Assembly (NCBI GenBank): GCA_026415615.1
Contig: JAOAGT010000002.1
Location: 448,545 to 512,544, forward strand
DNA length: 64,000 nt
DNA from: Thermoleophilia bacterium
GTDB lineage: Bacteria > Actinomycetota > Thermoleophilia > RBG-16-64-13
Direction of reading: 5' to 3'
Part shown: positions 7,864 to 44,107 of the stretch, in pieces
Layout of the letters: each line of letters starts with the position of its first letter
Numbering within the stretch: position 1 is the first letter of the stretch
The notes under the pieces: generated by a model
Database searches by the model: none
Told to the model about the DNA's origin: nothing
Seen by the model: only the letters and a program-made list of their open reading frames with translations
Made by a program: the position numbers and the translations under genes

Positions 7864-9591
7864 ATGGGAACAGGGCGCATTCCCCCTCCATATCTCCCTA
7901 AAGACCACTGGGAATACAACCTTTACGAATATCACAAGGGGCTCCCCGACAAGAGTCACTACGAGTTCATCGCTAACACACCCGGGGTCAAGACGGCCGA
8001 ATATTGGAAGGAATGGTGCCAGGCCATTTTCTACGCTGGCACTACCCTTTGCATGTGGAACGCACTCCCCGAGGTTAAAGCGGCCTTTCTGTCACTGTGC
8101 TCGTTTGAGCCAGGCATGAAGGTATTTCTGGTGGGCAAGTATTTGTGGGAAAGCGGTCTAGCGGACGCGGTTCGCTCCCTTGTCGGAGATTCGGGAACTC
8201 TCGGCATCCTTGACATGACTGATCAAGTTCTCGAGACTGTGCGTGAGCTGGGTCCGCGGCGGACGGTTCAGTATGAGGCTGCGGGGGCTACTGGCAGCCG
8301 GGCGGCTAGGCCGTTAGTTTGGCCCTTGACGTGTTTTGACGGACTACCAGAAGGAAGCCTAGACAGAGTGGTTTTCTTCAATGGCGGCGCGCATGTAGCT
8401 AATTGGGAGCATGTGGCGTCAGAGATAAGCCGCGTTCTTGGGGAGCACGGACGACTGGTGATGGCGGAAGCTCCTCTGGGCGGTAGGGAGTTTGAGAATG
8501 CTTTGCATCTCGATTCCCATTATGAGTCTTTCATTCTCAGGGTACTTTCCGGCCTAGGTCTGTCGGAGAATGAGCTTCCGTATGTGGACCCTCGGGGTCT
8601 AAGCGAGCTTCTGCGGCCGCATTTTGCGTGGACCAGGTGGTGGTCACACCGGGGCATTCTCCTGTTGTACGGAGCCAAGGGGAAGCACGGTCACGAGATT
8701 GCCGTGCCTGGGCCGGCAGCTTCACTTCCCTGTTCAGACGAGGCAAGGGGTCCAGTGAGCGCATTTCTCGCCGTCAAACCGGTGACCAGCAGCTGGGAGC
8801 TAATGACTGAGCGGGAAAGAGAGATCTGGGGTGAGACTGTCGAGGATATTCTCACCCCTCACATGGGGAAATGCGTCACCTGGGGAGGGGGATCTCTTTG
8901 CTGGAATTACCGCAACCAGCGGGAGATCACGGACATCATGTGGAGCAACCTCGCCGCAAAGCCCGGAGACAAAGTAATGGTGATCGGGGAGTTTCTGCAC
9001 GACCTGGGCACCCTTGAGGAAGTCAAGAGGCGAGTGGGACCTACCGGCCAGGTTTTCCCTGTTGATATAACTGCTTCGCCTTGCTCTTATGATTACAAAG
9101 GTTGGCAGGCTAAGCGTAAAGCCTACATGGATCTAGGTTCACCTGAGGAGTGGCCCTACGATTTTGCGGATGACTTTCCGGACGAGTTTTTCGACGTGCT
9201 GTTCCTGCCTCAAGGTGTACACCACTGCAACAACTGGCTTAGGGACGCTCCCAGACTTCTGCGCGCAGTCAAAGTTGGCGGGCAGGTCATGGCGATCGAG
9301 TGTGGAATCAACCGTCCGGAGATGGCGCTAGCCAGAGATTTAAGTGCTCTTGTGCAGGTGGTGGGCGACCGGGTGTTTCGCATCGCGCTGCCTGAATGGC
9401 TCGTGGGGCCGTTGAGCCCCGAAGGGCCTCTCCCAGCAGGTACTGGCTATGGCCACGAGGGTCGCCCGTACCATGATGTGCCGACGGCGCATCTTCGCGA
9501 GGCCTTTGGCGCGGGGCTTACGGACGTTTGCAGTTTGGAGTACAAGGGCTGGATCCTCTTCTGGGGGTATAAGGCGCCGCGGACTGTCTAA
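7864..9591 (+). CDS. hypothetical protein with two tandem degenerate class-I methyltransferase-like (Rossmann) domains; paralog A
   Basis: 575 aa with GAGGAG ribosome-binding site. N-domain: FLVGKYLWESGL (motif-I position but no GxGxG), LGILDMTDQVLETV, GSLDRVVFFNGGAHVANWEHVASEISRVLGEHGRLVMAE (post-II/III-like). C-domain: KVMVIGEFLHDLGTL...VFPVDIT...VKVGGQVMAIE. Clear paralog of 29360..30883. Confidence 0.7.
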   Translation: MGTGRIPPPYLPKDHWEYNLYEYHKGLPDKSHYEFIANTPGVKTAEYWKEWCQAIFYAGTTLCMWNALPEVKAAFLSLCSFEPGMKVFLVGKYLWESGLADAVRSLVGDSGTLGILDMTDQVLETVRELGPRRTVQYEAAGATGSRAARPLVWPLTCFDGLPEGSLDRVVFFNGGAHVANWEHVASEISRVLGEHGRLVMAEAPLGGREFENALHLDSHYESFILRVLSGLGLSENELPYVDPRGLSELLRPHFAWTRWWSHRGILLLYGAKGKHGHEIAVPGPAASLPCSDEARGPVSAFLAVKPVTSSWELMTEREREIWGETVEDILTPHMGKCVTWGGGSLCWNYRNQREITDIMWSNLAAKPGDKVMVIGEFLHDLGTLEEVKRRVGPTGQVFPVDITASPCSYDYKGWQAKRKAYMDLGSPEEWPYDFADDFPDEFFDVLFLPQGVHHCNNWLRDAPRLLRAVKVGGQVMAIECGINRPEMALARDLSALVQVVGDRVFRIALPEWLVGPLSPEGPLPAGTGYGHEGRPYHDVPTAHLREAFGAGLTDVCSLEYKGWILFWGYKAPRTV

Positions 9592-18458: not shown

Positions 18459-19610
18459 TTACTTGGCGCGCTCAAAGTCTGGATTCACGAGCCATTCCTT
18501 GAGCTTGGGGCCAATCTCGGGCCACCTCGCGATGTCTTCGGCCCACATCGACTCGCGGTACTTCAGATAGAACTGCTTTGACTCCTCAGGCGACAGGTGA
18601 ATGATCTTAATACCCGCAGCTTCAAGATCTGCCTTTACCTTTTCCACTGTCTTGTGGAAGTGGTCCGCCATGTCAATCTCGGTTTGAATCATGGCTTGGG
18701 TGAGCACGGCCTTTTGTTTCTCAGTGAGGCTCTCCCACTTCTTGAGGTTCATGATCATCATGCCGCCGCAGGAGCTGAACGGCTCGTCCAGCATAGCCTT
18801 GGTCACAGGCGTGAGTCCGAAGTCCTGAATGCCGGGGATGCCGATGTTGTAGCCGTCGACTGTCCCGCGCTCCATGGCTGTGAAGTACTCAGTAAAGTCT
18901 ATGGGCACGCAGACTGCGCCGAGGGCCTCAATGAAGGAACGGTTGGAACCGCCGGTGGCTGCGATCTTGAGCCCCTTCAAGTCAGCTAGGCCGTTGATAA
19001 CCTTGCCGAGGTAAATGACCGTCTGCTCCTGGGGACGAGACGAGACAGAGGCCCCCAAGTACTTGATGCCGTTCTTAGCAAATTCTTCCTCGTAGTACTT
19101 AAAGGCTGGGTTGCCGTTGCGCAGCTCTGGCGGGCTGTATTCAGCTCGCCCGATGGTGCTGCATCCGGGGACCATGGTGTCGCAATAGGCGGACATTACG
19201 CTCGCGATATCCATCGTGCCCCTTTGTACTGCAGCTGGCTGGTCCGGGGCGGGGATAGCCTCTGGGCCGTTGAACTTGATGGTCATCTTGCCAGCCGAGT
19301 ATTCCTGGACCTTGTTAATGAAGTCGCGGTGCCAGTCGGCTCCCGGGGGAATATCGGGCAAGAAGCAGGCCATGGAAAGCTCGATAGGCTCTACATCAGC
19401 AATTACCTGAGGCCCCGACGCAGCTGTCGTTTCTGTAGATGGCGCAGTAGTCTCAGTGGGCGCAGCCGTAGTGGTTGTCGCGGGTGCTTGGGTGGTAGCG
19501 GTGGTAGCCGGTGCGGCTGTGGTTGTGGTGGCTTCTTCCTCTCCGCACGATACCGCCAGGATAGACAGCGCAAGTACACAGCAAATGGCTATTATGGCCA
19601 GTTTCCTCAT
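18459..19610 (-). CDS. TRAP transporter substrate-binding lipoprotein (DctP family)
   Basis: Start placed at MRKLAIIAICCVLALSILAVSCGEE (GGGGGG ribosome-binding site upstream). TTTTAAPATTATTQAPATTTTAAPTETTAPSTETT linker. DctP-fold body. The six-frame ORF extends to 19736 but that N-terminal extension lacks a signal peptide. Confidence 0.85.
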   Translation of the reverse strand: MRKLAIIAICCVLALSILAVSCGEEEATTTTAAPATTATTQAPATTTTAAPTETTAPSTETTAASGPQVIADVEPIELSMACFLPDIPPGADWHRDFINKVQEYSAGKMTIKFNGPEAIPAPDQPAAVQRGTMDIASVMSAYCDTMVPGCSTIGRAEYSPPELRNGNPAFKYYEEEFAKNGIKYLGASVSSRPQEQTVIYLGKVINGLADLKGLKIAATGGSNRSFIEALGAVCVPIDFTEYFTAMERGTVDGYNIGIPGIQDFGLTPVTKAMLDEPFSSCGGMMIMNLKKWESLTEKQKAVLTQAMIQTEIDMADHFHKTVEKVKADLEAAGIKIIHLSPEESKQFYLKYRESMWAEDIARWPEIGPKLKEWLVNPDFERAK

Positions 19611-20184
19611 GGTGCCCCCCAATCCTAAGATTGCCTGATTTTGCCAAGTCTGCCTGCTGACGTGGAAGTCATTTCTCGCAAGTGCCGAGATGTGCTCTGG
19701 TCCGCTCCAACCTCCTTTGCTCCCGTTTGCTGTCAAGCCGGAACCTGTTGATCAGTGCCTCCCGGTATCGCCAAGCGTATAGCGTGGTGCTCCCGGGCCG
19801 AGACTGCTACTCCGGCGCGCCCGACTATGTTAGTGAGGACTACTAGCACACGCTACTAGCGAATGCAACCGGTCTGTGTTATGTAGGACAGGTAATCGAG
19901 TTACTAGACAGCGTTCTTACCAGGGCAAGATGCTTCCCTCGGTACTGGGAATGAAAGGCGTGACACACAACATGGACTACCTTGACTTGCCCGCGGGCAA
20001 GAAAGAAAACACCAAGAAGGATGACGGTACTGGCCCTGAGGGCAACAGTTCGTCGCCACAGACCGGAACCACCCTCACCACCCACACCCGTGAGATCTCG
20101 GGAACTGTAGCTCGCAGTAGTGAGACCGCGGGAACAAACGGAGGAGGCAGCAAGAGGAGCTCCGTATCTCTGCGGTGGAAGACC

Positions 20185-20832
20185 ATGAAGCCCGAACAAA
20201 AGAAGGAGGCGGTTATCAAAGCCGTACTGCGGGTGATAGCCAAACACGGGGTTCAAGGTACCACCACCGCTCGTATCGCTGCAGCTCTGGGGGTATCTGA
20301 GCCGACCATCTACCGAGTTTTCCCGAGCCGGCGGGAAATGCTTCTGGCTGCGGCGCAAAGTCTATGGCGGCAACGCCGTGAAGAGCTCGAGGCGTTTGTT
20401 CCAGTTGACGCTATGGACTATCTAAGGAAGTTATCTGCGCATCACACCGCTGGCATCCAGAAAACCAGAGTAACCCGGTATCTTTACGAGCTTTCGGTTG
20501 CGCGGCCTTCTGATGGACTCCGTGACTACTTGCGCGGGGAAATGATCGCCGAAGCAGAACGTCTTGCGGCTATTGTGGAGCAAGGACAAAAAGAAGGGTG
20601 CATCCGTGCAGACGTAGACCCCGGGGAAACAGCCTGGCGGATCATGACCGTTTACTGGCTTGAGGCTATGGCCCGGCTCCATGGGCTTGAGGACATTCTT
20701 CTCACCGGGTTTTCCACCCGGTTTTTCGACGGGATCCTAACCGACATTGCTGCCGCGCCTCTAGATGCACCAGGTGAGCAGCAAACTGTAGGGCAAAGTA
20801 GCGTCAAAGCGAGCGGTCTTGAGGGAGTGTGA
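20185..20832 (+). CDS. TetR/AcrR family transcriptional regulator
   Basis: HTH: KEAVIKAVLRVIAKHGVQGTTTARIAAALGVSEPTIYRVFPSRREML. The six-frame ORF starts at 19876 with a roughly 100 aa Gly/Thr/Ser-rich extension. Either start is possible. Confidence 0.7.
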   Translation: MKPEQKKEAVIKAVLRVIAKHGVQGTTTARIAAALGVSEPTIYRVFPSRREMLLAAAQSLWRQRREELEAFVPVDAMDYLRKLSAHHTAGIQKTRVTRYLYELSVARPSDGLRDYLRGEMIAEAERLAAIVEQGQKEGCIRADVDPGETAWRIMTVYWLEAMARLHGLEDILLTGFSTRFFDGILTDIAAAPLDAPGEQQTVGQSSVKASGLEGV

Positions 20833-20836
20833 ATAG

Positions 20837-22093
20837 ATGGATCACCAGTCTCCGCAAGTCTTGTACCAAGAGAGATTAAAGAGGATTGAGGACGCCATAG
20901 CACTGCGCCAGCCGGATAGAGTCCCGATCGTGATGTCTGCCGGATATTTTCTGGCTGATCTGGGAGGCATTACCAAACAGCAGCTGCTTGAGGACCCTGA
21001 ACTTTGCCAACAGCTGCTAGAAAAGGCCGCCCTTGAATTTCAGCCTGATTCAATCTGGGGTCCTATGCCGGCGGATCCAACTCCCTCCCTTATTCTGGGG
21101 GACAGACAGAGCGCTTGGCCCGGACACCAGCTTTCGCCCAACAGCCAGTTCCAGTTCGTTGAAGGCGAATTCATGAAGGAAGACGAGTACGAGGAATTCC
21201 TGGAAGATCCCACCGACTGGACCATCCGCACCTATTTGCCGCGGGTGTTTGGGGCGCTTGAAAGCTTTGCGCAGCTGCCGCCTCCGATTCTGTTCCTGTT
21301 TGGCGGGGGTTTTGGCCTTTCTAATTTTGCAATGCTGACCTCAGGGGCATTCGCGGAGTCTTTCAAAGCTTTTGCCAAGGCCTTACAGGCGGTAGCCGAA
21401 GGCCATGAGCGGGCAGCCAGAAATCATGAGCGCATGGCGGCGTTGGGTTTTCCGCCGAGCTTCATGAACGGTCCGATTCTAACCGCTCCCTTCGACGTGA
21501 TGTCTGATGCGGTTCGTGGGATGCGCGGCATTATGCTCGACGTTATTCGGCGTCCCGACAAGCTGCTTGCGGCGCAAGAAAAGGTGATGCGCTTTGAGCT
21601 TAAGTGGGCTCTTGATTTTTGCCGGGCTACGGGCGCAAAGAGAGCTTTTCTGCCTCTTCACAGGGGGTCGGATGGCTTCATGTCGCTGAAGCAGTTTGAG
21701 ACCTTGTACTGGCCGCAGCTGAAGAAGGTTCTCGAGACCCTCATAGAGAACGGCGTGACCCCCGTGGTGTTCTACGAAGGCTGCTGGAATCAAAGACTGG
21801 AGTATCTAGCGGAGCTACCCAAGGGCAAGAGCGTAGGATGGTTCCAAGCAAGCGACATCTTCAAAGTCAAGGAAGTGCTTGGCGACACCATGTGCATCAT
21901 GGGGGGGATGCCAAACTCGCTGCTTAAGGCTGGTCCTGCCGAGGAGGTGCGTGCGTTCACCAAACGCCTTTGCGAAGAGGTTGGCAAGGGCGGGGGATTC
22001 ATCATGACCACCGCGGTTGGCGAATTGGCTGGCTGCGATCCGGATCTCATCAAGGTGTGGGTGGAGGCGACCAAGGAATTTGGGAAAGCTTAG
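20837..22093 (+). CDS. uroporphyrinogen decarboxylase (URO-D) family methyltransferase (MtaA/CmuA/MtvB-like corrinoid methyltransferase)
   Basis: 418 aa with the URO-D-fold pattern (RVPIVMSAGYFLADLGGIT, VVFYEGCWNQRLEYL, MCIMGGMPNSLL, GGGFIM). This family supplies substrate:corrinoid or methylcobamide:acceptor methyltransferases in anaerobes. Confidence 0.8.
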   Translation: MDHQSPQVLYQERLKRIEDAIALRQPDRVPIVMSAGYFLADLGGITKQQLLEDPELCQQLLEKAALEFQPDSIWGPMPADPTPSLILGDRQSAWPGHQLSPNSQFQFVEGEFMKEDEYEEFLEDPTDWTIRTYLPRVFGALESFAQLPPPILFLFGGGFGLSNFAMLTSGAFAESFKAFAKALQAVAEGHERAARNHERMAALGFPPSFMNGPILTAPFDVMSDAVRGMRGIMLDVIRRPDKLLAAQEKVMRFELKWALDFCRATGAKRAFLPLHRGSDGFMSLKQFETLYWPQLKKVLETLIENGVTPVVFYEGCWNQRLEYLAELPKGKSVGWFQASDIFKVKEVLGDTMCIMGGMPNSLLKAGPAEEVRAFTKRLCEEVGKGGGFIMTTAVGELAGCDPDLIKVWVEATKEFGKA

Positions 22094-22123
22094 CAAAGCA
22101 CAGGAAAGCTTAGGAATGAAACC

Positions 22124-22858
22124 ATGGACCTCAAGTTGAAGGATAAAGTTGCGCTCGTTACAGGAGCAGGGAGTCCCATAGGCTATGGCAGGGCAATTGC
22201 TCTCACCCTGGCCGAAGAGGGCTGTCGAGTTGCCTGTGCTGACCTACGACTTGACTGGGCAGAGGAGACCGCTGCCCTAATCAGAGAGGCAGGCGGCGAA
22301 GCCTTCGCAGTCAAGGTTGACGTGACCGACATGGCCCAGGTGGAGGCCATGGTGGAGGCGGTTGTTGCCCGATACGGGCGGATCGACATTCTCGTTAACA
22401 ACGCTGGCAAAAGCAGCATCGACAAACCTTTCATGGAAAAGACCCGGGCAGACTGGGATCTCGATATTCAGGTGAATTTGTATGGCCAAATGAACGTGGC
22501 GCGCGCAGTGATTCCTCACATGGCCAGGCAAGGCTATGGGCGCATCATTAACACTTCCGGCGGGCAGGGCTTGCCGACCGTATCCACTTACGGAGCAGCC
22601 AAAGCAGGGGTGGAAGCATTTACACATTCGTTGGCCATGGAGGTTGCCTCCTTGGGGATCATCGTAAACGCCATTGCCCCGGGGCTGGGGGAGACCGGCC
22701 TGATTTCGGCCAGCGAAGAACACAAAGAGGGGTATCGGCGTATGTCGGCCCTAAAACGCCTTTGCACTCCAGCCGACGTGGCACCTGCGGTGGCGTTTCT
22801 AGCTTCGGATGTTTGTAGCTACATGGTTGGGCAGTGCCTCAGGTTGAGTACCCACTAG
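22124..22858 (+). CDS. SDR family oxidoreductase (FabG-like)
   Basis: VALVTGAGSPIGYGRAIALTLAEEG, NNAG, catalytic YGAAK, PGLGET. Confidence 0.9.
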   Translation: MDLKLKDKVALVTGAGSPIGYGRAIALTLAEEGCRVACADLRLDWAEETAALIREAGGEAFAVKVDVTDMAQVEAMVEAVVARYGRIDILVNNAGKSSIDKPFMEKTRADWDLDIQVNLYGQMNVARAVIPHMARQGYGRIINTSGGQGLPTVSTYGAAKAGVEAFTHSLAMEVASLGIIVNAIAPGLGETGLISASEEHKEGYRRMSALKRLCTPADVAPAVAFLASDVCSYMVGQCLRLSTH

Positions 22859-22873
22859 CAAGGAGTACCAGTC

Positions 22874-23095
22874 ATGGCCATACGTCACTTTAGTCGTGAC
22901 GATTGCACGGGATGCGGGATATGTGTCGCTGCGTGTCCCATGGATGTGCTTCGTCTGGATGAGGAAGCGCAGAAGGCAACCGTAAGCTATCCCGACGACT
23001 GCATCGCCTGCTGGGGTTGCGAGTCGTTCTGTCCGCAGGGTTGTTTCGATATTTCTCCCGAACGGGCCCGCGGGGAGCTACCCGCTCCTTACTGA
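22874..23095 (+). CDS. 2x[4Fe-4S] ferredoxin
   Basis: CTGCGICVAACP and CIACWGCESFCP motifs in 73 aa. AAGGAG ribosome-binding site. Confidence 0.85.
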   Translation: MAIRHFSRDDCTGCGICVAACPMDVLRLDEEAQKATVSYPDDCIACWGCESFCPQGCFDISPERARGELPAPY

Positions 23096-23133
23096 GTCTC
23101 GCGGAGTAACAAAGGCGAGTGGGAAGGAAAGAC

Positions 23134-24849
23134 ATGAGAGGCTGGGATCAAACGCCGGTTAGGATTGCTGCCGATGTGCTGGTGCTGGGAGCGGGCGGTG
23201 CTGGCATGTGTGCGGCGCTTAAAGCGCGGGAAATCGGCGCTGATGTTCTGATGGTAGACAAGTGCGGCATCGGCTACAACGGGCAGGTGCCTATCGGGGG
23301 CGGCATACTCGCGTACATTTACCCCTCCTACGTAGAGACGTGGGTTGAGAAAGTTACCCGCCAGAGCCATTTCTTCAACAACCAGGAATGGACGTATCTC
23401 TTTGGCCGCTCAATGGACCCAGTTACTACTGAGCTTGCGAAGCTAGGGCTCACATTCTTGCGGAAAGAGGGCGAGATCGAGATTCTAACCTGGGGTCCAA
23501 ATATCCATGTGACGCTATTTGACGCGCCCAAGTCCTTAGTGGCCCTAAAAAGAACAGCCGCCGCCCGGGGCGTGCGCATGATGGACAAGATTTTTGCTGT
23601 CGATCTGCTCAAGAAAGACGACCGTGTGGTAGGAGCGGTGGCCTTTGGGTTGGTAGATGGGCGGGTTTATGTTTTTGATGCCAAGGCAGTAATTGTTGCC
23701 ACCGGGAACTGCGGCTACCAGCATGAAAAAACTTACAGCTCCGTCCAAGGCGAGGGCCCAGCTATGGGTTATCGAGCGGGGGCCAAACTCACCAACGCCG
23801 AGTTCAACAGCATGTACGTGTGGGGAGCTAAGGTCCTTGGCAAGGAGTTAATGGGCATCCATTACTACCTGTATCTCGAGAACGCCCGGGGAGAAAAGAT
23901 TATGGGCAAGCACTATCCGGAGCTGATGGTAGGAAAGCATGCCGTCTACACCTTTGATCCTCGGGTTATTGACGCCATGTACAAAGAGGTCCAGGCTGGG
24001 CTAGGACCCATCTATCTAAACCTCACGGGGCTGAGCGAGGAAGAAATTGCAGGGCTTGCCGAAGACGTCGTGGAAGAACTCTCTCATCTTATGGCAAACG
24101 ACTCCATGCGTTTGCTTCGGGAAAAGGCCGGCATTGATCCCACGAAAGAGCGCATCGAAATGTGGCCTCGTCTGTTGTACACGGGGGGCGGCATGCTGGT
24201 GGACACAGAGTGTCGAACGACTGTCCCAGGTCTTTGGGCGGCGGGGGGAGCGTGCAGCACCTTGTGGACTAACGGCGGCGGTGGTCAGGGCGGTCTAGGG
24301 GTACAGAACGCCGCGGTTACTGGATTTGTCGCTGGGGAGAGTGCAGCCAAATGGGCGGCGGAGACAACGCTTGTGCGCGCCGATGATGCCCATGTTGAGC
24401 AAGTTGTGGGGCGGATTATTGAGCCGCTTGTGCGGGAAGGGGCGGGCGACCCGTACGAGGTCACCTACCGAGTACATGAAGCAATAGTTCCCATGAAGTA
24501 CAACCGCATCCGAGAGGCTACTAGGATGCGTGAGGCACTGGGGATCTTGGCGGATGCGCGCGAAAAACTGTCTCGTATAAGCGTCCGCAATTTCCACGAT
24601 CTAGCCCGTTATCACTCAGCAGAAAGCATGCTGATGGCGGCGGAGTTTACCTACCAGGCTGCTTTAATGCGCCAGGAGAGCAGAAGCCAGCACTATAGAG
24701 AAGATTTCCCCGCGCGAGACGACGCAAATTGGCTTAAGTGGATCACGATCGAAAAGGGGGCAAACGGCCCCGAGCTTGGTGTTGTACCCGTGCCCTTGGA
24801 GAAGTACCCGCTCAAACCAGACTGGTGGCCAGCATTGAGCGGGAATTAG
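23134..24849 (+). CDS. FAD-dependent oxidoreductase, succinate dehydrogenase/fumarate reductase flavoprotein-like family
   Basis: ADVLVLGAGGAGMCAALKARE dinucleotide-binding motif. Approximately 570 aa. C-terminal helical capping domain. Start chosen at ATG 23134 (the ORF alternatively starts at 23119). Confidence 0.8.
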   Translation: MRGWDQTPVRIAADVLVLGAGGAGMCAALKAREIGADVLMVDKCGIGYNGQVPIGGGILAYIYPSYVETWVEKVTRQSHFFNNQEWTYLFGRSMDPVTTELAKLGLTFLRKEGEIEILTWGPNIHVTLFDAPKSLVALKRTAAARGVRMMDKIFAVDLLKKDDRVVGAVAFGLVDGRVYVFDAKAVIVATGNCGYQHEKTYSSVQGEGPAMGYRAGAKLTNAEFNSMYVWGAKVLGKELMGIHYYLYLENARGEKIMGKHYPELMVGKHAVYTFDPRVIDAMYKEVQAGLGPIYLNLTGLSEEEIAGLAEDVVEELSHLMANDSMRLLREKAGIDPTKERIEMWPRLLYTGGGMLVDTECRTTVPGLWAAGGACSTLWTNGGGGQGGLGVQNAAVTGFVAGESAAKWAAETTLVRADDAHVEQVVGRIIEPLVREGAGDPYEVTYRVHEAIVPMKYNRIREATRMREALGILADAREKLSRISVRNFHDLARYHSAESMLMAAEFTYQAALMRQESRSQHYREDFPARDDANWLKWITIEKGANGPELGVVPVPLEKYPLKPDWWPALSGN

Positions 24850-24900
24850 CTGGTAGTTGGATAGGCGGCCCTCAACGGTAAAGGAGGCGGGAAGAGCGCG

Positions 24901-26367
24901 ATGGTAAGCAAAGAAAGACTGGCAGAGATAGTAGGGGCTGCGAATGTCAGCAGCGAGCCGGATGTTCTTGAGCAGTACGCCAGGGACGTGAGTTTTGTCA
25001 ATCATACAAGACCGGCGTACGTGGTTAAGCCCCATACCGCCCAGGAGGTCAAGGACCTTGTCAAACTGGCCAACGAGAGCCGTACGCCTCTGGTGCCAGT
25101 GAGCTCGGGCCCACCGCACTTTCGGGGAGATACGGTGCCCACAGCGGGCGGGGCGGTGGTGGTAGACCTGAGTGAGATGAAACGCATCGTGTTTGTGGAT
25201 CGCCCGCGCAGAGTGGCCATGGTTGAGCCAGGCGTGACCTTTGGAGAACTCATTCCGGCTGCCACCAAGGAAGGGATTAGGCTAAACATGCCTCTCTTGC
25301 CTAGAACGACCAAGACAGTCGTGGGCAGCATGTTAGAGAGGGAACCTGTGGTCATGCCCAAGTATCAGTGGGACATCTCCGATCCCTTGGCGTGCGTTGA
25401 GGTAATCTTCGGCACGGGTGACGACTTCCGCACGGGCCAGGCCGCTGGACCCGGCACCATCGAAGAGCAGTGGCAGGTCGGGGGAGTGCAGAAAGCCCCC
25501 TACGGGCCTCACATTACCGCGTGGCATAGGCTCATTCAGGGAGCTCAGGGAACCATCGGAATCGTGACCTGGGCCTCTTTGCGCTGTGAGCTGCTGCCTC
25601 GGTTACAGGAGCCTTACGTCGTAGCAAGTGCGCAGCTGGGACCTTTGGTGGAGATGGCAGCCTGGTTGATTCGGCTAAGGATGGCCAACGAGTGCTTCAT
25701 TTTGTCGAATGCCAACCTGGCTGCGATCTTTGCCGAAGACTGGCCAAACGATTACGTCAAGCTAAAAGCCTCTCTGCCCTCTTGGACATTGTTCTACGTT
25801 CTGGCCGGCTACGAGTACTTCCCCGAAGAGAGGGTGGCGTCATATCAGAAGCAAGTCGTATCTCTTTGTCAGCGCCTAGCTCTGGAGCCGCTGCGGGCGG
25901 TGGGCGGACTTTCTGCGCGCAGCATCATGAAAGCTGTGCAGAACGTGTGCCCCGAACCCTACTGGAAGCTCCGCTACAAAGGCGCCTCAGAGGACGTGTT
26001 CTTCCTTACCACCAACGACAAGGTGGAAGGATTTGTAAGTACGATGCAGGCTCTTGCTGCCGAGGTAGGGTACGCTGCCTCTGACTTAGGAGTCTATGTC
26101 CAGCCAGTGGTGCAAGGTACGGCTTGTCACGTAGAGTTCAACCTCTTCTACGATCCAGGTGACAGCAAAGAAGTCGAGCGGACTAGATGTCTTGCCGGCA
26201 TTGCCACGAAAGCGTTCTTGGATGATGGCGCCTTCTTCTCTCGTCCATACGGCGAGTATGCCCGGGACATCATGAATCGCGATGCTGCGTCGCTAGATGT
26301 GCTTAAGAAGCTGAAGGGGATCTTTGATCCCAACAACATCATGAACCCGGGCAAGCTTTGCTTCTGA
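24901..26367 (+). CDS. FAD-linked oxidase (GlcD/D-lactate dehydrogenase-like, PCMH-type FAD-binding domain)
   Basis: N-terminal FAD-binding-4 pattern (VVKPHTAQEVKDLVKLANESRTPLVPVSSG). C-terminal FAD-oxidase domain. AAAGGAGG ribosome-binding site. Confidence 0.85.
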   Translation: MVSKERLAEIVGAANVSSEPDVLEQYARDVSFVNHTRPAYVVKPHTAQEVKDLVKLANESRTPLVPVSSGPPHFRGDTVPTAGGAVVVDLSEMKRIVFVDRPRRVAMVEPGVTFGELIPAATKEGIRLNMPLLPRTTKTVVGSMLEREPVVMPKYQWDISDPLACVEVIFGTGDDFRTGQAAGPGTIEEQWQVGGVQKAPYGPHITAWHRLIQGAQGTIGIVTWASLRCELLPRLQEPYVVASAQLGPLVEMAAWLIRLRMANECFILSNANLAAIFAEDWPNDYVKLKASLPSWTLFYVLAGYEYFPEERVASYQKQVVSLCQRLALEPLRAVGGLSARSIMKAVQNVCPEPYWKLRYKGASEDVFFLTTNDKVEGFVSTMQALAAEVGYAASDLGVYVQPVVQGTACHVEFNLFYDPGDSKEVERTRCLAGIATKAFLDDGAFFSRPYGEYARDIMNRDAASLDVLKKLKGIFDPNNIMNPGKLCF

Positions 26368-26429
26368 GCTTTGCTTCTGAGGCGAGGCCTGTTGGTGAGA
26401 CATTGGTCGTAGCAGAAGGAAGGAGCGAG

Positions 26430-27704
26430 ATGGCATTAGAAGATTACGCCGGTGACATGAACATGTGTTGCCGCTGCTCGGCATGCAAGTTCATACCACT
26501 GCAGATGATCAAAGGGTATAAGCATGCCTATGTGTGCCCCAGCATCTCCCGGTACAACTTCCACTTCTTCTCTGGCGGCGGCAGACTGAACCTGGGGGTG
26601 GCGGGGCTGGAGCAGGGGTTCAAATACACGCCCTGGTACCTCTCCAGTGTCTATAACTGTCAGCAATGCGGCGCCTGCGACGTGTCCTGCAAGTACGGCA
26701 TGGACATGGAGGTCCTGCTTCCCATCCAGGAGCTTCGCATCAAGGCAGTGGAAGACGGGCATGCGCATCCGGCTCTGGCGCGCGTGGTGGAGCGGATGAA
26801 CAAGACCGGGAGCATGGTCCCCATGGAAGGGGCAAGCCGTGGGGACTGGGCTGCGGACTTGGGCCTCAAAGACGCCACCCAAGAGAAGGTGGAGGTTCTC
26901 TACCACGTAGGGTGCCTGACCAGCTTTGATAAGGATATGCAGGCGGTGGCTCGGGCGACGGCCAAGGTACTTGGCGCGGCCGGGATTGACTTTGGCATCC
27001 TGGGCGATGCCGAGACCTGCTGTGGGGGGCGCGCCTACGAGATGGGCCACAAGAATGACTTCATGACTCAGGCCAAGAAGAGCATGGAGGTCATCCGGTC
27101 CACTGGGGCAAAATTCCTGGTCACGAGCTGCGCCGAGTGCTACCAGGCCTACAAGGTTCTCTACGATCGTTTTGGCCTACGGAATGATTCGGAGCTTAAG
27201 GTTCTCCATACCTCTCAGCTTCTAGACGAGGTGATAAGCCAGGGCAACCTCAAGCTAAGTGGCCGGGTCGATCTGTGTGTTACTTATCACGATCCTTGCC
27301 ATCTGGGCAGACTAGGAGAGCCCTGGATCCACTGGCAGGGTAAAAAAGTGCCGGGCGACCGCTTCATCTTTGACCCGCCGAAGCCTTACCGCCGCGGCAC
27401 TAACGGGGTATACGAGCCGCCGCGCCGGGTGCTAAAAAGCGTACCCGGGGTGATTCTCGAGGAGATGGACCGCATAAAGGAATACGCGTGGTGCGCTGGT
27501 TCGTGCGGTGGTGTTACCGACTCCAATCCGGAGTTTGCCGAATGGACCGCCGAGCAGCGTCTCGAAGAGGCGCTCTGCACAGGCGCGGAGGCGATTGTCT
27601 CGGCTACCCCGTGGGGCGAGAAGCTCCTGCGCGATGTCGCAAAGAAGAACGACGTGCAGCTCGAGGTTTATGACCTTGTTGAACTGGTCGCCCAGGCTAT
27701 CTAG
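26430..27704 (+). CDS. Fe-S oxidoreductase, GlcF/heterodisulfide-reductase-D-like (two 4Fe-4S motifs plus two CCG domains)
   Basis: CCRCSACKF and CQQCGACDVSCKYG, then HVGCLTSFD...CCGG and YHDPCHLGR cysteine-rich CCG domains. Start set at MALEDY (GAAGGAAGGAG ribosome-binding site). The ORF extends to 26358. Confidence 0.8.
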   Translation: MALEDYAGDMNMCCRCSACKFIPLQMIKGYKHAYVCPSISRYNFHFFSGGGRLNLGVAGLEQGFKYTPWYLSSVYNCQQCGACDVSCKYGMDMEVLLPIQELRIKAVEDGHAHPALARVVERMNKTGSMVPMEGASRGDWAADLGLKDATQEKVEVLYHVGCLTSFDKDMQAVARATAKVLGAAGIDFGILGDAETCCGGRAYEMGHKNDFMTQAKKSMEVIRSTGAKFLVTSCAECYQAYKVLYDRFGLRNDSELKVLHTSQLLDEVISQGNLKLSGRVDLCVTYHDPCHLGRLGEPWIHWQGKKVPGDRFIFDPPKPYRRGTNGVYEPPRRVLKSVPGVILEEMDRIKEYAWCAGSCGGVTDSNPEFAEWTAEQRLEEALCTGAEAIVSATPWGEKLLRDVAKKNDVQLEVYDLVELVAQAI

Positions 27705-27721
27705 GAAGGAGGTCGAAAGCC

Positions 27722-29212
27722 TTGGCACTTACTAAGGAAATGTATGAGGCGTTCGCAGGGGTAGTGGGGGAAGAGAATCTCTGCGACGATCCCGCCATGA
27801 TGGCTGCTTATTTCCGCACGGATTTTGCGGCGGTGGTGATGCCCAAGGACACTGCCGAAGTCCAAGCGGTCGTCAGATTGTGCAATAAGTTCAAGCTAAA
27901 GTTTAGGCCCATATGTACAGGCTGGACGGGAGTCTTCCAGCCGGGCAGCGTTCTGCTTGATCTGCGGCGGATGAACCGCATCATCGAGATCAACGAAAAG
28001 AACATGTATGCGGTAGTGGAGCCGTACGTGACTTCTGCCCAGCTGCAGGCTGAGCTGTTTAAGCGAGGGCTGAACACCAACATGAAGGGGGCAGGAGCCC
28101 AGTGTTCGGCCATGCTTCGGGGCCACGGACATCTCGATCAGTCGTGTGGCGCTGACGATCGCAATCACCTAGCTGTGGAGTGGGTGACTCCCGAGGGCGA
28201 GCTGGTCAAGATGGGATCCTGGGGCGCCATCGGTGAGTGGTTCTGTGGCGATGGGCCAGGCCCCTCTTTGCGCTCCCTTGTGTCCAGTGTGGTTCCGCCG
28301 AGCACCACTCCGGGCGTCTTCACCAAGGTGGCGATGAAGCTTTATCACTGGCCGGGGCCTGATAAGTACGCGCTGGAGGGCTACTCTCCCAAATATACGT
28401 TGCGGGAGTTTCCGCCCAACATGATGGCTCGGTACTACAGCTTCCCCACGCTTGAGAAGATGTGGCAGGCGGAGATTGCCATCGGCGAGGCGGAGATCGC
28501 TCTTGAGCTCATGGGCTTCAACGCGGCCATGGTGGCGGCGAATATCACCACCTGCAACGAAGAAGAAATGGCCATGTTTGAACGCCTCTCTAAGGAGGTG
28601 CAGGGGCCGGGCTTCTTTGTGATCATAGCTGGCGATTCTCCAGAAGACTTTGCCTACAAGAAAAAGGTCCTTGAGACTATCGTCAAGGAAAATGACGGGC
28701 AGTCGCTTAAGACAGTCGAAGATCCGGAGCTTGAGGGTATCCTGCTTACGCAGTGCACAAGAATCAGTGCATCAGTTCGGGAGACGTTCCGACCGGGTGG
28801 GTACTTCAAGTCGATTCCCATCATGGGTCAACGTGACCTTACTATTCGTTGGGCTGTAGGTGCTGGCAAGGCCAAGCTCCCGCTTATTGAGCAGGGTCTT
28901 ATTGCCGATGACGGTGGCGGATTCTTCGGCTGGGGAGTGGAGCACGGTCATCTCGGCAAGACGGAGATCTTCTGCAAGTTCAGTCCGCTTAATCCCGAGG
29001 CCTGGAAAGCGGTTAACAAGTGGCACCAGGAGCAGGTCCAGCGGGCGCTTGACGAAAAGTACTTTGCTCTCACCATGGGGCCGCAGGAAGAGATCGACAA
29101 GAAGGTTGGGCCCGCTCTCTCGAACTATCACTTGTGGTGGTACAAGGTGCTCGACGCCTTAGACCCCAACGGAGTGGTGCCTGACAAGGGCCTGAGCAAT
29201 CTTACGCCGTAG
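27722..29212 (+). CDS. FAD-binding oxidoreductase (GlcE/GlcD-like second flavoprotein subunit)
   Basis: PCMH-type FAD domain (VVMPKDTAEVQAVVRLCNKFKLKFRPICTGWTG). 496 aa. GGAAGGAGG ribosome-binding site. TTG or downstream ATG start. Confidence 0.8.
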   Translation: MALTKEMYEAFAGVVGEENLCDDPAMMAAYFRTDFAAVVMPKDTAEVQAVVRLCNKFKLKFRPICTGWTGVFQPGSVLLDLRRMNRIIEINEKNMYAVVEPYVTSAQLQAELFKRGLNTNMKGAGAQCSAMLRGHGHLDQSCGADDRNHLAVEWVTPEGELVKMGSWGAIGEWFCGDGPGPSLRSLVSSVVPPSTTPGVFTKVAMKLYHWPGPDKYALEGYSPKYTLREFPPNMMARYYSFPTLEKMWQAEIAIGEAEIALELMGFNAAMVAANITTCNEEEMAMFERLSKEVQGPGFFVIIAGDSPEDFAYKKKVLETIVKENDGQSLKTVEDPELEGILLTQCTRISASVRETFRPGGYFKSIPIMGQRDLTIRWAVGAGKAKLPLIEQGLIADDGGGFFGWGVEHGHLGKTEIFCKFSPLNPEAWKAVNKWHQEQVQRALDEKYFALTMGPQEEIDKKVGPALSNYHLWWYKVLDALDPNGVVPDKGLSNLTP

Positions 29213-29217
29213 GGGGT

Positions 29218-29258
29218 GGGCGGGCGCAGGCCCTGCAGGGCCTGCGCCCGCCCCCTTT
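29218..29258 (+). terminator. GC-rich palindromic terminator
   Basis: GGGCGGGCGCAGGCCCTGC/GCAGGGCCTGCGCCCGCCC perfect inverted repeat followed by CTTT. Confidence 0.5.
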
Positions 29259-29359
29259 CAGTACCCGTCCAATACGTGGGCCGGGAGTGTAGACTTTCTA
29301 GCCTGCTTCGCGCAGCGCTTCTCTCTTGTTTGTTTCGATAACGGCAAGGAGGTTGCGGT

Positions 29360-30883
29360 TTGACAGCCCTACCCGAGAGAACAGCAAGCTGGTGCCAAGC
29401 GTTGTTCTTTGCTGGATCCACGACCTACATGTGGAATCAGGCGCCGGAGCTTAAAGCGCTTTTCTTGACGGCCTGCTCCTTCGAGGAAGGTATGGACGTA
29501 CTCCTTATAGGCAAGTTCTTGGAGGAAAGCGGTCTTGTTTCGGCCGTTGAGTCGATCCTACGGAGCTGGGGCAATCTGCGGGTAGTGGACTTGGCTCCCC
29601 AGGTTGTGGCTGCATGGCGGGCGGCGGGTGTGGCAGATGAGCAGCCTTCTTTCAAATGGGATCTTGATTGTTTTGATGAGCTCAGAGATGGGAGTCTCGA
29701 CCGTGTCGTGTTGTTTAACGCGGCCTCCCACGTTGCGGACTGGGAACATCTGTCTGCTCAAATCGGCCGGGTTCTTTGTCGAGGAGGCCGGGTTGTAGTC
29801 GCAGAGGCTCCACTGGGCGGGGCTGCTTTTAAACGCGCCCTTGCCTTTCACGCAGGATGGCGAGCAACGGTCGAAGGATTGCTTAGCGGCTTGGATCTAG
29901 AAGAAAGGGCAGTTGCTCCGCCAGAACCGGAGGATCTCAGGGCTCTGCTTGCCCAGCATATGACTTGGGCTCGTGTGCATGAGTGGCAGGGAATCTTTAT
30001 TTGCTACGGACAAAAAGGTCTCACAGAAAGGGAGGAGCTGGAAGCGTCCACAGCTGCCGAGATGGCCGGTCTGGGGGAGAATGATCTGGTCTACGTACCC
30101 GGTCCGGACACGTTTACAGCTTTTCCGCCGGCCAACATCTGGGTGCGCAGTTTCTTGAAGGTGCGTCCAGTGCGCACCACGTGGAGCCTTATGAGCGAGC
30201 TTGAGAAGGAAATTTGGGCAGACACCGCTGTAGAACTAGTGACACACTCAGGTGGCGATCTGTCAACAAATAAGGTGCTGGGGCTTAGCTTGATCGTCGA
30301 GTCGCCACAATCTGAGTTGGCGTCGCAGACACTGGTTTTGACGAAGCCTGCTGCAATAGGAGATGCGCTAGGAGGCTTTTCTCATCACTGGGCTTCTGGG
30401 CTTGTCGGCGCGTTTCTGGAATGCTTCCTGGGTCCAGATGATGGCCACCTTGCAAAGGTTGGAGAAACGCATGGTCCTTCTGAGCTGGGAAGTCTTGTTG
30501 CCAGACACTCGGCAGACGAGCTTGATCTTCTTTTTGTTGACGCCAGACTGGGTGACAGACACTACTGGAAGGAAACAATATCCCTCCTGTTGCCGGTTCT
30601 AAAACCCGGGGGCCGGCTTGTGTTATTTGCGGAAGATGGCGATGCTATCCAGCTGCTGTCGTTTCACAGCGCCTTCGCGCGCCTGCTTCTGGCAAGACTA
30701 GTGACTCCAGCAGACCCACTCGCTGCAGACTCCGCGGACGCGCTCTGTAACCGACTGACGGGCGGCATAAATATGGACCCCGAGTTGCTGCGCCAAGTGC
30801 TTGCAGGGTTCTTTGATGAGATCTCTGTGGCAGGACACGGCGGCTTCGTATTTGTGTCTGGCCGAAAACCTATGCGTCTTTAG
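29360..30883 (+). CDS. hypothetical protein with two tandem degenerate class-I methyltransferase-like domains; paralog B
   Basis: 507 aa, TTG start with AAGGAGG ribosome-binding site. Aligns with 7864..9591 along its length: WCQALFFAGSTTYMWNQAPELKALFLTACSFEEGMDVLLIGKFLEESGL vs WCQAIFYAGTTLCMWNALPEVKAAFLSLCSFEPGMKVFLVGKYLWESGL; GSLDRVVLFNAASHVADWEHLSAQIGRVLCRGGRVVVAEAPLGG vs GSLDRVVFFNGGAHVANWEHVASEISRVLGEHGRLVMAEAPLGG. Confidence 0.7.
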   Translation: MTALPERTASWCQALFFAGSTTYMWNQAPELKALFLTACSFEEGMDVLLIGKFLEESGLVSAVESILRSWGNLRVVDLAPQVVAAWRAAGVADEQPSFKWDLDCFDELRDGSLDRVVLFNAASHVADWEHLSAQIGRVLCRGGRVVVAEAPLGGAAFKRALAFHAGWRATVEGLLSGLDLEERAVAPPEPEDLRALLAQHMTWARVHEWQGIFICYGQKGLTEREELEASTAAEMAGLGENDLVYVPGPDTFTAFPPANIWVRSFLKVRPVRTTWSLMSELEKEIWADTAVELVTHSGGDLSTNKVLGLSLIVESPQSELASQTLVLTKPAAIGDALGGFSHHWASGLVGAFLECFLGPDDGHLAKVGETHGPSELGSLVARHSADELDLLFVDARLGDRHYWKETISLLLPVLKPGGRLVLFAEDGDAIQLLSFHSAFARLLLARLVTPADPLAADSADALCNRLTGGINMDPELLRQVLAGFFDEISVAGHGGFVFVSGRKPMRL

Positions 30884-30888
30884 ACAAC

Positions 30889-31200
30889 CTATGCGTCTTT
30901 GGGCTCGCTGGGGCTGTTCTGTGGGCTGTCAGAGAAGAGACTCTCAAACCGACGCGCGGCTTTTTCTTTTTCTGCCTCCTGAGCAGCTCTTACTTTCGAT
31001 GCGGCTTCTTCCAGGGCCACTTTGTGTTGCTCTGCCCGGGCAAGCAGAGTGTCAAGCGAGACCTCCGGCTGCTCCTTCGCCACTTGCTTTAGGATAAAGA
31101 GCACTTCCTCTTGCAGCGTCCGCTGATTGTATGCCGCTCGCATGCGCAAGGCCCGGACTACTTCGTCGGGTACGTTTTTTATGGTCAGGGTGGTAGCCAT
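30889..31200 (-). CDS. ribbon-helix-helix FitA/plasmid-stability-type antitoxin-like protein
   Basis: Start at MATTLTIKNVPDEVVRALRMRAAYNQRTLQEEVLFIL (RHH beta-strand plus helices), then a charged C-terminal tail. No PIN/VapC partner adjacent. Confidence 0.5.
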   Translation of the reverse strand: MATTLTIKNVPDEVVRALRMRAAYNQRTLQEEVLFILKQVAKEQPEVSLDTLLARAEQHKVALEEAASKVRAAQEAEKEKAARRFESLFSDSPQNSPSEPKDA

Positions 31201-31219
31201 TACATTGACGCTCCTGCGT

Positions 31220-31768
31220 TCAAAGCCTAAGTACCAACAAGCGGGCTCGCTCTTCAATTCGCCTTAGCTCCGCTTCATCAGGAAGACCTTTGATGTTGCC
31301 CATTCTTCCTCTTGTGCTCAGTTCCTCAGACCCATGGAACTCAGAAAGCACATACCATTCATCTAGCACAGCGAACCCTAGGTGCTCAAAAAACTGCGCA
31401 GCGTACATGCCAGCTGGGATGGCCTCTCTGAGCCCCGTGTGTGGTCCCGAGAAAGTGCAGAAAATTAAGGCATTTCTGTTAGGCAGGCGCGGTGCTCCTG
31501 GCAAGACCCTGCCTTGATGGCGATACTGTTCAAACTTGCTCTTTAGATAATCATCCATGGCCCGGGGCGGATGCCAGTTGTAAGACGGAAACCCCAGGCA
31601 GACAAGATCAAAATCAAAGAAGTCAAGATCTCCAGCCTCTTCTACTGGACGCAAGGTAGTGGCCATTCCTCCGGCGCGGAGTCCTGCTTCGATGGCCCGA
31701 GCTACCTTGGCTGTATTTCCTGTGCGTGACCAATAAAGCACCAGGGCAGTTCTTGGCGCGTTGGTCAT
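31220..31768 (-). CDS. flavodoxin-like fold protein (NAD(P)H-dependent FMN reductase/flavodoxin family)
   Basis: TALVLYWSRTGNTAKVARAIEAGL flavodoxin-type phosphate-binding loop. Confidence 0.7.
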   Translation of the reverse strand: MTNAPRTALVLYWSRTGNTAKVARAIEAGLRAGGMATTLRPVEEAGDLDFFDFDLVCLGFPSYNWHPPRAMDDYLKSKFEQYRHQGRVLPGAPRLPNRNALIFCTFSGPHTGLREAIPAGMYAAQFFEHLGFAVLDEWYVLSEFHGSEELSTRGRMGNIKGLPDEAELRRIEERARLLVLRL

Positions 31769-31852
31769 TCCTCTACCTCTTATCTTGTGCTCGCGGTTGT
31801 TCCTGCCGTAATTTTGCTACCGACTAACAGAAGCCTACCATGACAACAGGCG

Positions 31853-32236
31853 GTGGCAAGAGGTTCCCAAAGGAGGCTGCACGTGATTGTCAAGCGAGCA
31901 AGCGACGTGGAGCAAGTAGAGGTAGCCGGGTGTCCTGGGGTAACAAAACAAATTGTCCTGGGCCCAGCCGATGGTTCAGAGGAGATAGTGCTCCGTTACT
32001 TTAAGGTAGAAAAAGGCAGCGCTACGCCCCGGCATGCTCATGATTTTCCTCACCTCGTGAAGATTGAAGCTGGCCAGGGAGTAGCGGTATGTGCTGATGG
32101 GACCGAGAAGCCTCTGGGCGCCGGCGACTACGTGTTTGTTCCAGCCAATGAGCTGCACAGCTTCAGGAACACAGGGGAAAAGACCTTTGAGTTCGTGTGT
32201 ATAGTGCCGGGGCGCGGCGAGCCGCCCGGAGCCTAG
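31853..32236 (+). CDS. cupin_2 domain protein
   Basis: PRHAHDFPHLVKIEAGQG...GDYVFVPANELHSFRNTG two-motif cupin signature. Confidence 0.7.
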   Translation: MARGSQRRLHVIVKRASDVEQVEVAGCPGVTKQIVLGPADGSEEIVLRYFKVEKGSATPRHAHDFPHLVKIEAGQGVAVCADGTEKPLGAGDYVFVPANELHSFRNTGEKTFEFVCIVPGRGEPPGA

Positions 32237-32272
32237 GCCGGGCGGCTCGCCGCCTAAATCCTGTCTAGCCTT

Positions 32273-33049
32273 TTACCGCACTATCCGGTAGACGACTGTC
32301 ACCGAAGCTGTTACCTGGATGTTCTGCGGAATGATCGGCGGCGGTGTTACCGAACCTGTCTCTTGGGCGCCAGCATAAGCTCTTGCATCCATTCCCGGGA
32401 ACCAGTTGTAGCTCTGGTTCTCACTGATGCTGACAACTTCTCCCAGACGAAGACCCTGGTCTTGTGCGATAGCTTCGGCTTTGAGCTGAGCGTTGGCAAG
32501 CGCCTTTGAAAGGGCCTTGGCGACTGCCGAACTGTCCTCTCTTAGTTGCCAAGCGGGACCGTTTATGTTGTCCGCTCCTGCGTCGCTAGCTGCAGCGAAA
32601 ACCTGTCCTATCTGGGCGAAATCCGTGATCCTGACACTTACCGTGTTCTGTGCCCGGTAGCCGGTGGTTTTCTCCTGGCCCGTTGCAGAGTCATAGTAAC
32701 GGTTGGGGTAGACTGTAACTCCTGCGGTCTCAATCTTGTCCTGCGAGATGCCCTCAGCCTTCAAGCGATCAAGGACCTTCTGTGTTTCCTTTGAGTTCGC
32801 GTCAAGTGCCGCGGCCGCGGTTTTCCCATCCGTTTCGACACCGATTTGGATCGTGGCCTCATCTGGAGCGGTGGTGACCGTGCCAGTGCCGGTGACGACG
32901 ATAGTGTTGGCTCCCTGGGCTTCAGGGCTCTCTGCTTGAGCGGCTGGCTGCTCCTGGCTGCATCCGGCTAATGTTCCTGCCAGGATAATCGTTAGACCCA
33001 CCAGAACTGCTGCAATGAGCCTCCCCGTGCTCCGTTTGGAGTGCGTCAT
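32273..33049 (-). CDS. SIMPL/DUF541 (BP26/OMP28-like) secreted protein
   Basis: Signal peptide plus Cys. NTIVVTGTGTVTTAPDEATIQIGVET...TQKVLDRLKAEGISQDKIETAGVTVYP pattern of the SIMPL domain. Confidence 0.8.
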   Translation of the reverse strand: MTHSKRSTGRLIAAVLVGLTIILAGTLAGCSQEQPAAQAESPEAQGANTIVVTGTGTVTTAPDEATIQIGVETDGKTAAAALDANSKETQKVLDRLKAEGISQDKIETAGVTVYPNRYYDSATGQEKTTGYRAQNTVSVRITDFAQIGQVFAAASDAGADNINGPAWQLREDSSAVAKALSKALANAQLKAEAIAQDQGLRLGEVVSISENQSYNWFPGMDARAYAGAQETGSVTPPPIIPQNIQVTASVTVVYRIVR

Positions 33050-41587: not shown

Positions 41588-41588
41588 C

Positions 41589-44093: not shown

Positions 44094-44107
44094 GCGCTAT
44101 AGCCCTC

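Follow-up and report, generated by a model that had tools for sequence, protein, structure and literature searches.

The analysis covered 64,000 nucleotides of DNA from a Thermoleophilia metagenome-assembled genome (MAG), hereafter the window. It centered on a gene for a twin-lobe methyltransferase-like protein, copy B, whose paralogue, copy A, lies about 20 kb away. Copy B is best explained as a functional, lineage-specific paralogue of copy A within a very rare family of fused twin-lobe UbiE/Coq5-like proteins. The features that matter most for this are the following.

29360..30883, + strand: copy B, 507 aa, with two class I methyltransferase-like lobes, defined from its open reading frame (ORF), translation, AlphaFold2 (AF2) model, Foldseek matches and omega (dN/dS)
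29360-30019, + strand: N-lobe of copy B, residues 1-220
30020-30259, + strand: linker of copy B
30260-30880, + strand: degenerate C-lobe of copy B
29346..29352, + strand: ribosome-binding site AAGGAGG, 7 nt before the TTG of copy B
29213..29258, + strand: conserved GC-rich hairpin, terminator- or attenuator-like, with a TTT tail, right after the stop codon of the upstream FAD_binding_4 gene
7864..9591, + strand: copy A, 575 aa, a full-length family member with the N-terminal 'PPYxPKDHWEYN' segment retained and the C-lobe intact

Copy B is a real gene. Its TTG is the earliest start codon available after an in-frame stop upstream. A start at M24, the next in-frame methionine, would cut off residues conserved in the family, including C12 and G19, so the TTG start is well supported. 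Of the two orthologues described below, the one at locus L001 has an identical TTG and ribosome-binding site, and the one at locus L004 begins with GTG, preceded by AAGGGAGG as the ribosome-binding site. The initial annotation had described copy B as the second of two paralogues, with a TTG start behind an AAGGAGG site and a GC hairpin with a weak T-tract ahead of it, and all of this was confirmed. There is 40% identity between the two copies over about 310 aa (E = 2e-66), with hardly any alignment of the C-terminal halves, and no third family copy was found in the window. Each protein is also duplicated internally: the N-lobe and C-lobe profiles match with an HHalign probability of 99.5% (E = 2.8e-22, 215 columns).

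The AF2 models of both halves consist of alternating beta/alpha lobes with a Rossmann-like seven-stranded alpha/beta fold (pLDDT 82.6 and pTM 0.83 for copy B; 88.7 and 0.91 for copy A), and the C-lobe model of copy B contains low-confidence stretches. When the two models were compared with the PDB, Foldseek returned 167-183 methyltransferase-fold matches at E <= 1e-3 and no other folds, with identities of 10-20%. Among these were the tandem-lobe PEAMT/PMT enzymes, RsmC, CysG, CouO/NovO, Coq5 and the N-domain of anamorsin. Methyltransf_11 passed the Pfam cut-off (32-34 bits versus 21.2), and the UbiE/Coq5 equivalogs (NCBIfam NF001240 and others) scored at best 17.3 bits where the cut-off is 378. 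In Pfam and the PDB, any resemblance in sequence to known methyltransferases was confined to the beta4-beta5 region and never covered motif I; in PDB sequence searches, copy B, the family profile and a single-lobe relative retrieved nothing beyond weak beta4-beta5 similarity to assorted methyltransferases.

Motif I (E/DxGxGxG after beta1) is replaced in both lobes of all 26 aligned members and in the single-lobe relatives, proteins of about 240 aa that also exist. The replacements read 'IGK[YF]xxESG' in the N-lobe, 'I[GA]EFPEDLG' in the C-lobe and 'GExxxxCGF' in the single-lobe relatives. The actual sites are 'VLLIGKFLEESGL' in the N-lobe and 'VMVIGEFLHDLG' in the C-lobe of copy A; the C-lobe of copy B has no recognizable motif. 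The replacements of the two lobes align with each other in the HHalign comparison. Because both lobes, all members and the single-lobe relatives share the replacement, the loss of motif I predates duplication and fusion.

Of the two copies, B is the derived one. It lacks an N-terminal segment of about 45 aa ('PAPYPPKDHWEYN...') that is present in all other full-length members, together with every C-lobe signature of copy A (WGGG..WN, YDYKGWQ, PQGVHHCNNW and ECGINRP), and retains all N-lobe invariants of the family. In a neighbor-joining tree of the N-lobe, calculated with no support values, copy B sits on a long branch nested in the copy-A crown group. The seven upstream proteins of the window match their L001 counterparts at 95.5-99.8% identity, and copy B does so at 81%. 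The corresponding omega for copy B is 0.27 over the whole gene (95% confidence interval (CI) 0.20-0.37), 0.20 in the N-lobe (0.11-0.33) and 0.43 in the C-lobe (0.29-0.62), versus 0.038 (0.028-0.050) for the seven upstream genes pooled, 0.08 for the TetR core and 0.07 for the gene of a ribbon-helix-helix (RHH) protein downstream. Copy B thus has an omega about seven times that of its neighbors. Three lineages preserve its frame unbroken, even where identity falls to 59% (dS ~1.9). Copy B is under purifying selection, though far less constrained than its surroundings, and is not a pseudogene.

The family is rarely encountered. For copy B, 5.8 billion protein clusters yielded just two orthologues (P0002 and P0003, 82% and 59% identical), and for copy A about 25. 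Expressed as proteins, those two are all that copy B has in about 15 billion. The family profile found 130 matches at E <= 1e-3 in 1.84 billion representatives, with about six full-length clusters at 50% identity. Of 185,579 species-representative genomes two carry a member, and metagenomes contributed 21 loci.

The genes around copy B, and the one that faces copy A, are listed below.

19972..20832, + strand: TetR-family regulator, first in the plus-strand string; its reading frame is open from 19876, translation likely begins at the ATG at 19972, and 4 nt separate it from the next gene
20837..22093, + strand: URO-D-family protein (Pfam), far under the NCBIfam cut-off
22124..22858, + strand: short-chain dehydrogenase/reductase (SDR; Pfam)
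22874..23095, + strand: 2x[4Fe-4S] ferredoxin, 73 aa, a gene called in L001 as well
23119..24849, + strand: FAD_binding_2 / Succ_DH_flav_C flavoprotein, fumarate-reductase-like, 29% identical to the FAD protein that stands beside a single-domain relative at L033
24901..26367, + strand: FAD_binding_4 flavoprotein, 'GlcD-like' at superfamily level only
26358..27704, + strand: CCG-domain Fe-S protein; its best NCBIfam match, TfrB, is below cut-off
27722..29212, + strand: second FAD_binding_4 flavoprotein (Pfam, NCBIfam), with its stop codon at 29210-29212
30889..31200, - strand: FitA-like RHH protein, whose 3' end abuts that of copy B; a conserved neighbor in L001 and L004
31220..31768, - strand: flavodoxin, a conserved neighbor of copy B in L001 and L004
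9744..11111, - strand: Peripla_BP_6 solute-binding protein, convergent with copy A and of a type that recurs beside family members

The last of these is the end of a minus-strand operon, onto which copy A had been correctly noted to converge. That operon encodes TRAP DctPQM, a tungsten-type AOR, an SDR, two proteins with no family match, SnoaL_4 and Peripla_BP_6. The Pfam families of the neighbors are as stated initially. The GlcD/GlcF/GlcE-like labels for the genes before copy B hold only at superfamily level: all three fall far below the NCBIfam cut-offs (GlcD 52 and 44 bits versus 568; GlcF 25 versus 333; TfrB for the CCG protein 132 versus 385). Naming a pathway or substrate from the Pfam and NCBIfam families of the neighbors was rejected, as every score falls well short of its cut-off and two genes lack any match.

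In L001 (82% identity) the copy-B orthologue follows DctP and the whole TetR, URO-D, SDR, ferredoxin, FAD_binding_2, FAD_binding_4, CCG and FAD_binding_4 string, and is itself followed by the RHH and flavodoxin genes. L004 (59% identity), a 2.3-kb contig, contains the 3' arm of the hairpin upstream of the copy-B orthologue, then RHH and flavodoxin. Copy B therefore stands at the cluster end in three of three loci, with strand and gene order kept. That it would prove tied to the cluster had been anticipated, and both orthologues do occupy the same slot, in L001 behind the full flavoprotein set. Copy B and the convergent RHH gene end 5 nt apart in the window (30881-30891), and their 3' ends overlap in L001 (11511-11524) and L004 (1652-1662). 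No terminator was found between these 3' ends at any of the three loci, so that convergent transcripts of copy B and RHH would collide or overlap.

On its other side copy B is preceded by a gap of 147 nt, the largest in the gene string, where other genes are 4-51 nt apart or overlap. This gap contains a conserved GC stem of about 20 bp. The core of the hairpin is a perfect 18-bp palindrome (29218-29253), extending to approximately 29213-29255, and TTT alone follows at 29256-58. Folding of 29205-29365 as RNA gave -84.2 kcal/mol (z = -4.8), and none of 200 shuffled sequences was as stable. The hairpin is kept at all three copy-B loci. In L004 the inner stem carries a compensatory change from AGGCCC/GGGCCT to AAGCCCC/GGGGCTT (G-C to A-T), and in L001 the tail is TTTTTT. 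Its sequence occurs only once in the window, and a repeated (REP-like) element was rejected as its identity for that reason. No riboswitch or known RNA emerged upstream of copy B when the whole window and 29150-29420 were searched against Rfam, only sub-threshold matches to the hairpin itself. A very similar GC-rich hairpin with a weak 'AGTTTC' tail lies at 59846-59881, in a truly convergent intergenic gap. Since a hairpin of the same style sits at that convergent 3' end, terminators in this genome probably look like GC hairpins without long T-tracts.

A sigma-70 promoter scan of 19600-32400 found nothing in the 29260-29345 gap, and its overall counts were no better than those of shuffled sequences. 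The -10-like hexamer 'TAGACT' at 29290 was considered and rejected as a promoter, as it is not conserved in L004. We conclude that copy B is probably insulated or attenuated relative to the flavoprotein genes. It may be transcribed by read-through, under attenuation or from a separate promoter.

A simpler explanation is that copy B is the plain co-transcribed last cistron of a TetR-controlled operon, as the initial annotation had it, and that copies A and B form a matched pair bracketing one 20-kb pathway; this overlaps in part with the explanation that we prefer. The common strand, the strong ribosome-binding site, the invariant place at the cluster end and the weak T-tract in the window agree with it. 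However, the hairpin with its compensatory change and its six-T tail in L001, and its resemblance to the one at a convergent 3' end, leave the status of ordinary last cistron unproven, and the 147-nt gap stands apart from the tight spacing of the other genes. The bracketing itself could be examined at other loci. Copy-A-type genes have the following recurrent neighbors.

Peripla_BP_6 binding protein: the window, L005, L006/7, L008, L017/18 and L019
TRAP DctPQM: L021, L022 and L023
SDR: six loci
S15 hydrolase: L005, L006 and L023
PadR, membrane protein and SnoaL: L002, L003, L010, L013, L014 and L016
SnoaL_4: L021
URO-D-like: L018
AOR: L023
FAD_binding_2: L009 and L025

Across the family the recurring neighbors also include TctC and Peripla_BP_1 binding proteins, alpha/beta hydrolases, and FAD_binding_2 with or without ferredoxin. 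The general company of the family is thus the same kinds of genes as lie between copies A and B here, and the adjacency of copy-A-type homologues elsewhere to genes for solute-binding protein, SnoaL_4, SDR, TRAP, AOR and URO-D speaks for a matched pair. Yet none of the approximately 30 copy-A-type homologues, in about 20 informative loci, flanks the flavoprotein set, and L001 and L004 are too short to reveal whether copy A is present. The layout of paralogous bookends proposed in the initial annotation is consequently not conserved. The synteny comparison upholds the association of copy B with the cluster end and fails to extend it to copy-A-type genes. Overall, we regard a last cistron within a bracketing pair as possible but rather doubtful.

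The single-lobe relatives place the family beside similar genes. At L033 two of them, 6179-6901 (-) and 8001-8732 (+), occur in one cluster, and likewise at L034. The cluster contains a 575-aa FAD_binding_2 protein (29% identical to that of the window), a ferredoxin (41%), TctC binding proteins and alpha/beta hydrolases. Such a pair resembles the twin-lobe protein in unfused form. At L035 a single-lobe relative has a Peripla_BP_1 gene on one side and ABC transporter genes on the other. At L008 (Chloroflexia MAG) a frameshift near 11346 breaks the family member at 10001-11630 in two, so that it is a pseudogene if the frameshift is not a sequencing error.

Export signals were observed in part of the family. 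The distant clade (L009/L026, L027/28 and P0033) has three N-terminal signal peptides that differ in sequence. At L009 the family member with a signal peptide (10001-11584, +) starts behind an AAGGAGG site and is divergent from a FAD protein (8374-9603, -) with the canonical twin-arginine translocation (Tat) signal MNRRNFLK; judging from these sequences, both partners appear to be exported. P0018, which is 60% identical to copy A (L036, 702-2489), begins with RRQFM, a Tat-like N-terminus preceded by an AAGGAGG site. S-adenosylmethionine (SAM) is not known to be available in the exported compartment, so this location is hard to reconcile with SAM turnover.

These data bear on the possibility that copy B and its whole family are genuine SAM-dependent methyltransferases with an unusual cofactor loop, acting on a pathway intermediate or a cofactor. 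Database annotation names copy B 'methyltransferase domain-containing protein' (copy A is a 'hypothetical protein'), the fold is confidently predicted, Methyltransf_11 exceeds its cut-off with weak UbiE matches besides, and both the beta4-beta5 motifs and an acidic residue closing beta2 survive in the N-lobe. But bulky or charged residues (K, Y/F, E) have taken the place of GxGxG in every member, motif I falls outside every profile alignment, some members seem to be exported, and the genomic context is catabolic and concerned with uptake, not biosynthetic. We consider a working methyltransferase unlikely. The methyl-handling role suggested earlier for the two copies is unlikely as well, given the degenerate SAM loop in both lobes and the apparent export of some clades.

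It is very improbable that copy B is a functionless duplicate decaying into a pseudogene: the lost N-terminal segment and C-lobe signatures, the raised omega, the low-confidence parts of the C-lobe model and the split member at L008 would suit a relic, but the frame is intact in three lineages, omega is well under 1 even in the C-lobe (upper CI 0.62), and the N-lobe invariants, ribosome-binding site and gene position are all conserved.

An accessory protein that is independent of SAM is favored over a working methyltransferase because the glycine-rich loop is replaced and because some members carry export signals. Specifically, we tentatively propose, at somewhat less than even chances, that copy B is a SAM-independent accessory protein of methyltransferase fold, whose N-lobe binds a ligand or a partner and whose gene lies behind an attenuating hairpin; both the SAM independence and the binding role are inferred. 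Such a protein could have arisen by duplication of a copy-A-type gene, after which copy B would have shed about 45 N-terminal aa together with every C-lobe signature motif and been captured at the 3' end of the TetR/flavoprotein string. The family would no longer transfer methyl groups. Its conserved N-lobe may bind a small molecule or a partner protein, for example the FAD_binding_2/ferredoxin pair, with the C-lobe mainly structural, and its members may act as accessory subunits of catabolic modules built around solute uptake and FAD_binding_2/ferredoxin flavoproteins. Copy B itself might be made at a reduced level by read-through past the hairpin, or from its own promoter.

A broader version can be envisaged, in which the fused twin-lobe and paired single-lobe forms constitute an undescribed class of SAM-independent methyltransferase-fold binding subunits. 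These would bind substrates or partners for FAD_binding_2/ferredoxin flavoenzymes and solute-uptake modules, working in the cytoplasm and, for certain clades, beyond the membrane, with copy B as a trimmed version dedicated to its cluster. This is speculative and, in our estimate, unlikely to hold as a whole.

Several observations weigh against the accessory-protein proposal. Beta2 of the N-lobe ends in an acidic residue (D77 in copy B, E or D in all members; the position is not conserved in the C-lobe), and in class I methyltransferases this residue contacts the ribose hydroxyls. The N-lobe also retains the usual beta4 motif 'DRVxLF..SH'. With both features in place, an adenosyl ligand, even SAM, could still bind there. 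The exported clade is only about 30% identical and its function may have changed, and the Tat start of P0018 competes with an internal ATG at 826 that has a good ribosome-binding site of its own, so that two isoforms are possible. In addition, the recurring neighbors are common catabolic gene types, and the neighbor-joining tree that places copy B carries no bootstrap support.

Comparison with known systems provides partial precedents. Plant PEAMT and nematode PMT-1/PMT-2, like copies A and B, consist of two tandem class I methyltransferase folds (~430-490 aa) and are the top Foldseek matches for both copies (E = 1e-9 to 1e-7). In the nematode phosphoethanolamine N-methyltransferases one lobe is vestigial. 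At least one PEAMT lobe retains a canonical SAM site, whereas both lobes of copies A and B are without GxGxG. Identity to the copies is 10-13% and the global TM is about 0.2, indicating that the lobe arrangement differs; moreover, PEAMTs are eukaryotic biosynthetic enzymes and the copy A/B family is found in bacterial catabolic and uptake loci. RsmC, a 16S rRNA methyltransferase, was matched by Foldseek with models of both lobes (~E = 4e-6). It is likewise a tandem duplication of the methyltransferase fold, in which the N-terminal lobe lost SAM binding and the C-lobe is a canonical, active RNA methyltransferase, but it has no sequence similarity to the family and its context is unrelated.

The N-domain of anamorsin/Dre2 is a single class I methyltransferase-like fold (the PDB title is 'methyltransferase-like domain') with a best per-domain TM of 0.58-0.62, and relatives of the family gave weak matches to Pfam Anamorsin_N and DRE2_N. 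It is not known to have a working SAM site or to bind SAM, and serves as a protein-interaction module in a flavoprotein/Fe-S electron relay. There is, however, no significant sequence relationship, and anamorsin is eukaryotic and single-lobed, with a fused Fe-S domain that is absent from copies A and B. By sequence the nearest families are UbiE/Coq5 (Methyltransf_11/Ubie_methyltran), which have in common with the copies the beta4-beta5 pattern 'FDxV...H...RVLKPGG..v.E'; the conserved Trp before beta1 also recalls, as we read it, the 'HRxW' motif of UbiE. The copies differ from UbiE/Coq5 in scoring far below the cut-offs, in the replaced motif I, in their tandem fusion and in a context other than quinone biosynthesis. 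A literature search on bacterial pseudo-methyltransferases found nothing on the copy A/B family.

The family is uncharacterized and probably mis-annotated, and the evidence suggests that its public labels as SAM-dependent methyltransferase or UbiE are probably wrong for the family as a whole. If a fold without its cofactor has been reused as a module that binds for or assists catabolic flavoenzymes, this would add a bacterial case to the short list of pseudo-methyltransferases. It would also offer a handle on an uncharacterized anaerobic catabolic cluster of uncultured Thermoleophilia (URO-D-like, SDR, Frd-like flavoprotein, FAD_binding_4/CCG, tungsten AOR and TRAP). The general importance is limited, since the family is very rare.

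A number of minor observations were made elsewhere in the window. The TetR ORF begins with a low-complexity N-terminus (19876-20160), accounting for about 60 aa of the likely protein and about 95 aa from the first start codon of the ORF. Direct repeats of the 'CTACTAGC' type lie just upstream of TetR (19840-19915) and are a possible operator. An inverted-repeat scan gave only a weak palindrome besides these repeats, which was insufficient, and an operator call was rejected. Two proteins of the AOR/TRAP operon, of 341 aa (12067-13092, -) and 169 aa (13137-13646, -), had no Pfam or NCBIfam match. No similarity was detected between the 341-aa protein and the 348-aa product of a gene beside the PadR-linked homologues; the latter has the appearance of a membrane protein. 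About 10 kb from copy B, at 40736-44093 (-), is a pyrogallol-hydroxytransferase-like molybdoenzyme with an AhtL-like large subunit and a Fer4_11/CarboxypepD_reg small subunit. Beside it, at 44108-50180, are genes for an acyl-CoA dehydrogenase, a LysR regulator, ETF beta and alpha, and ETF-QO. The neighborhood at 40736-50180 hints at polyphenol or aromatic catabolism.

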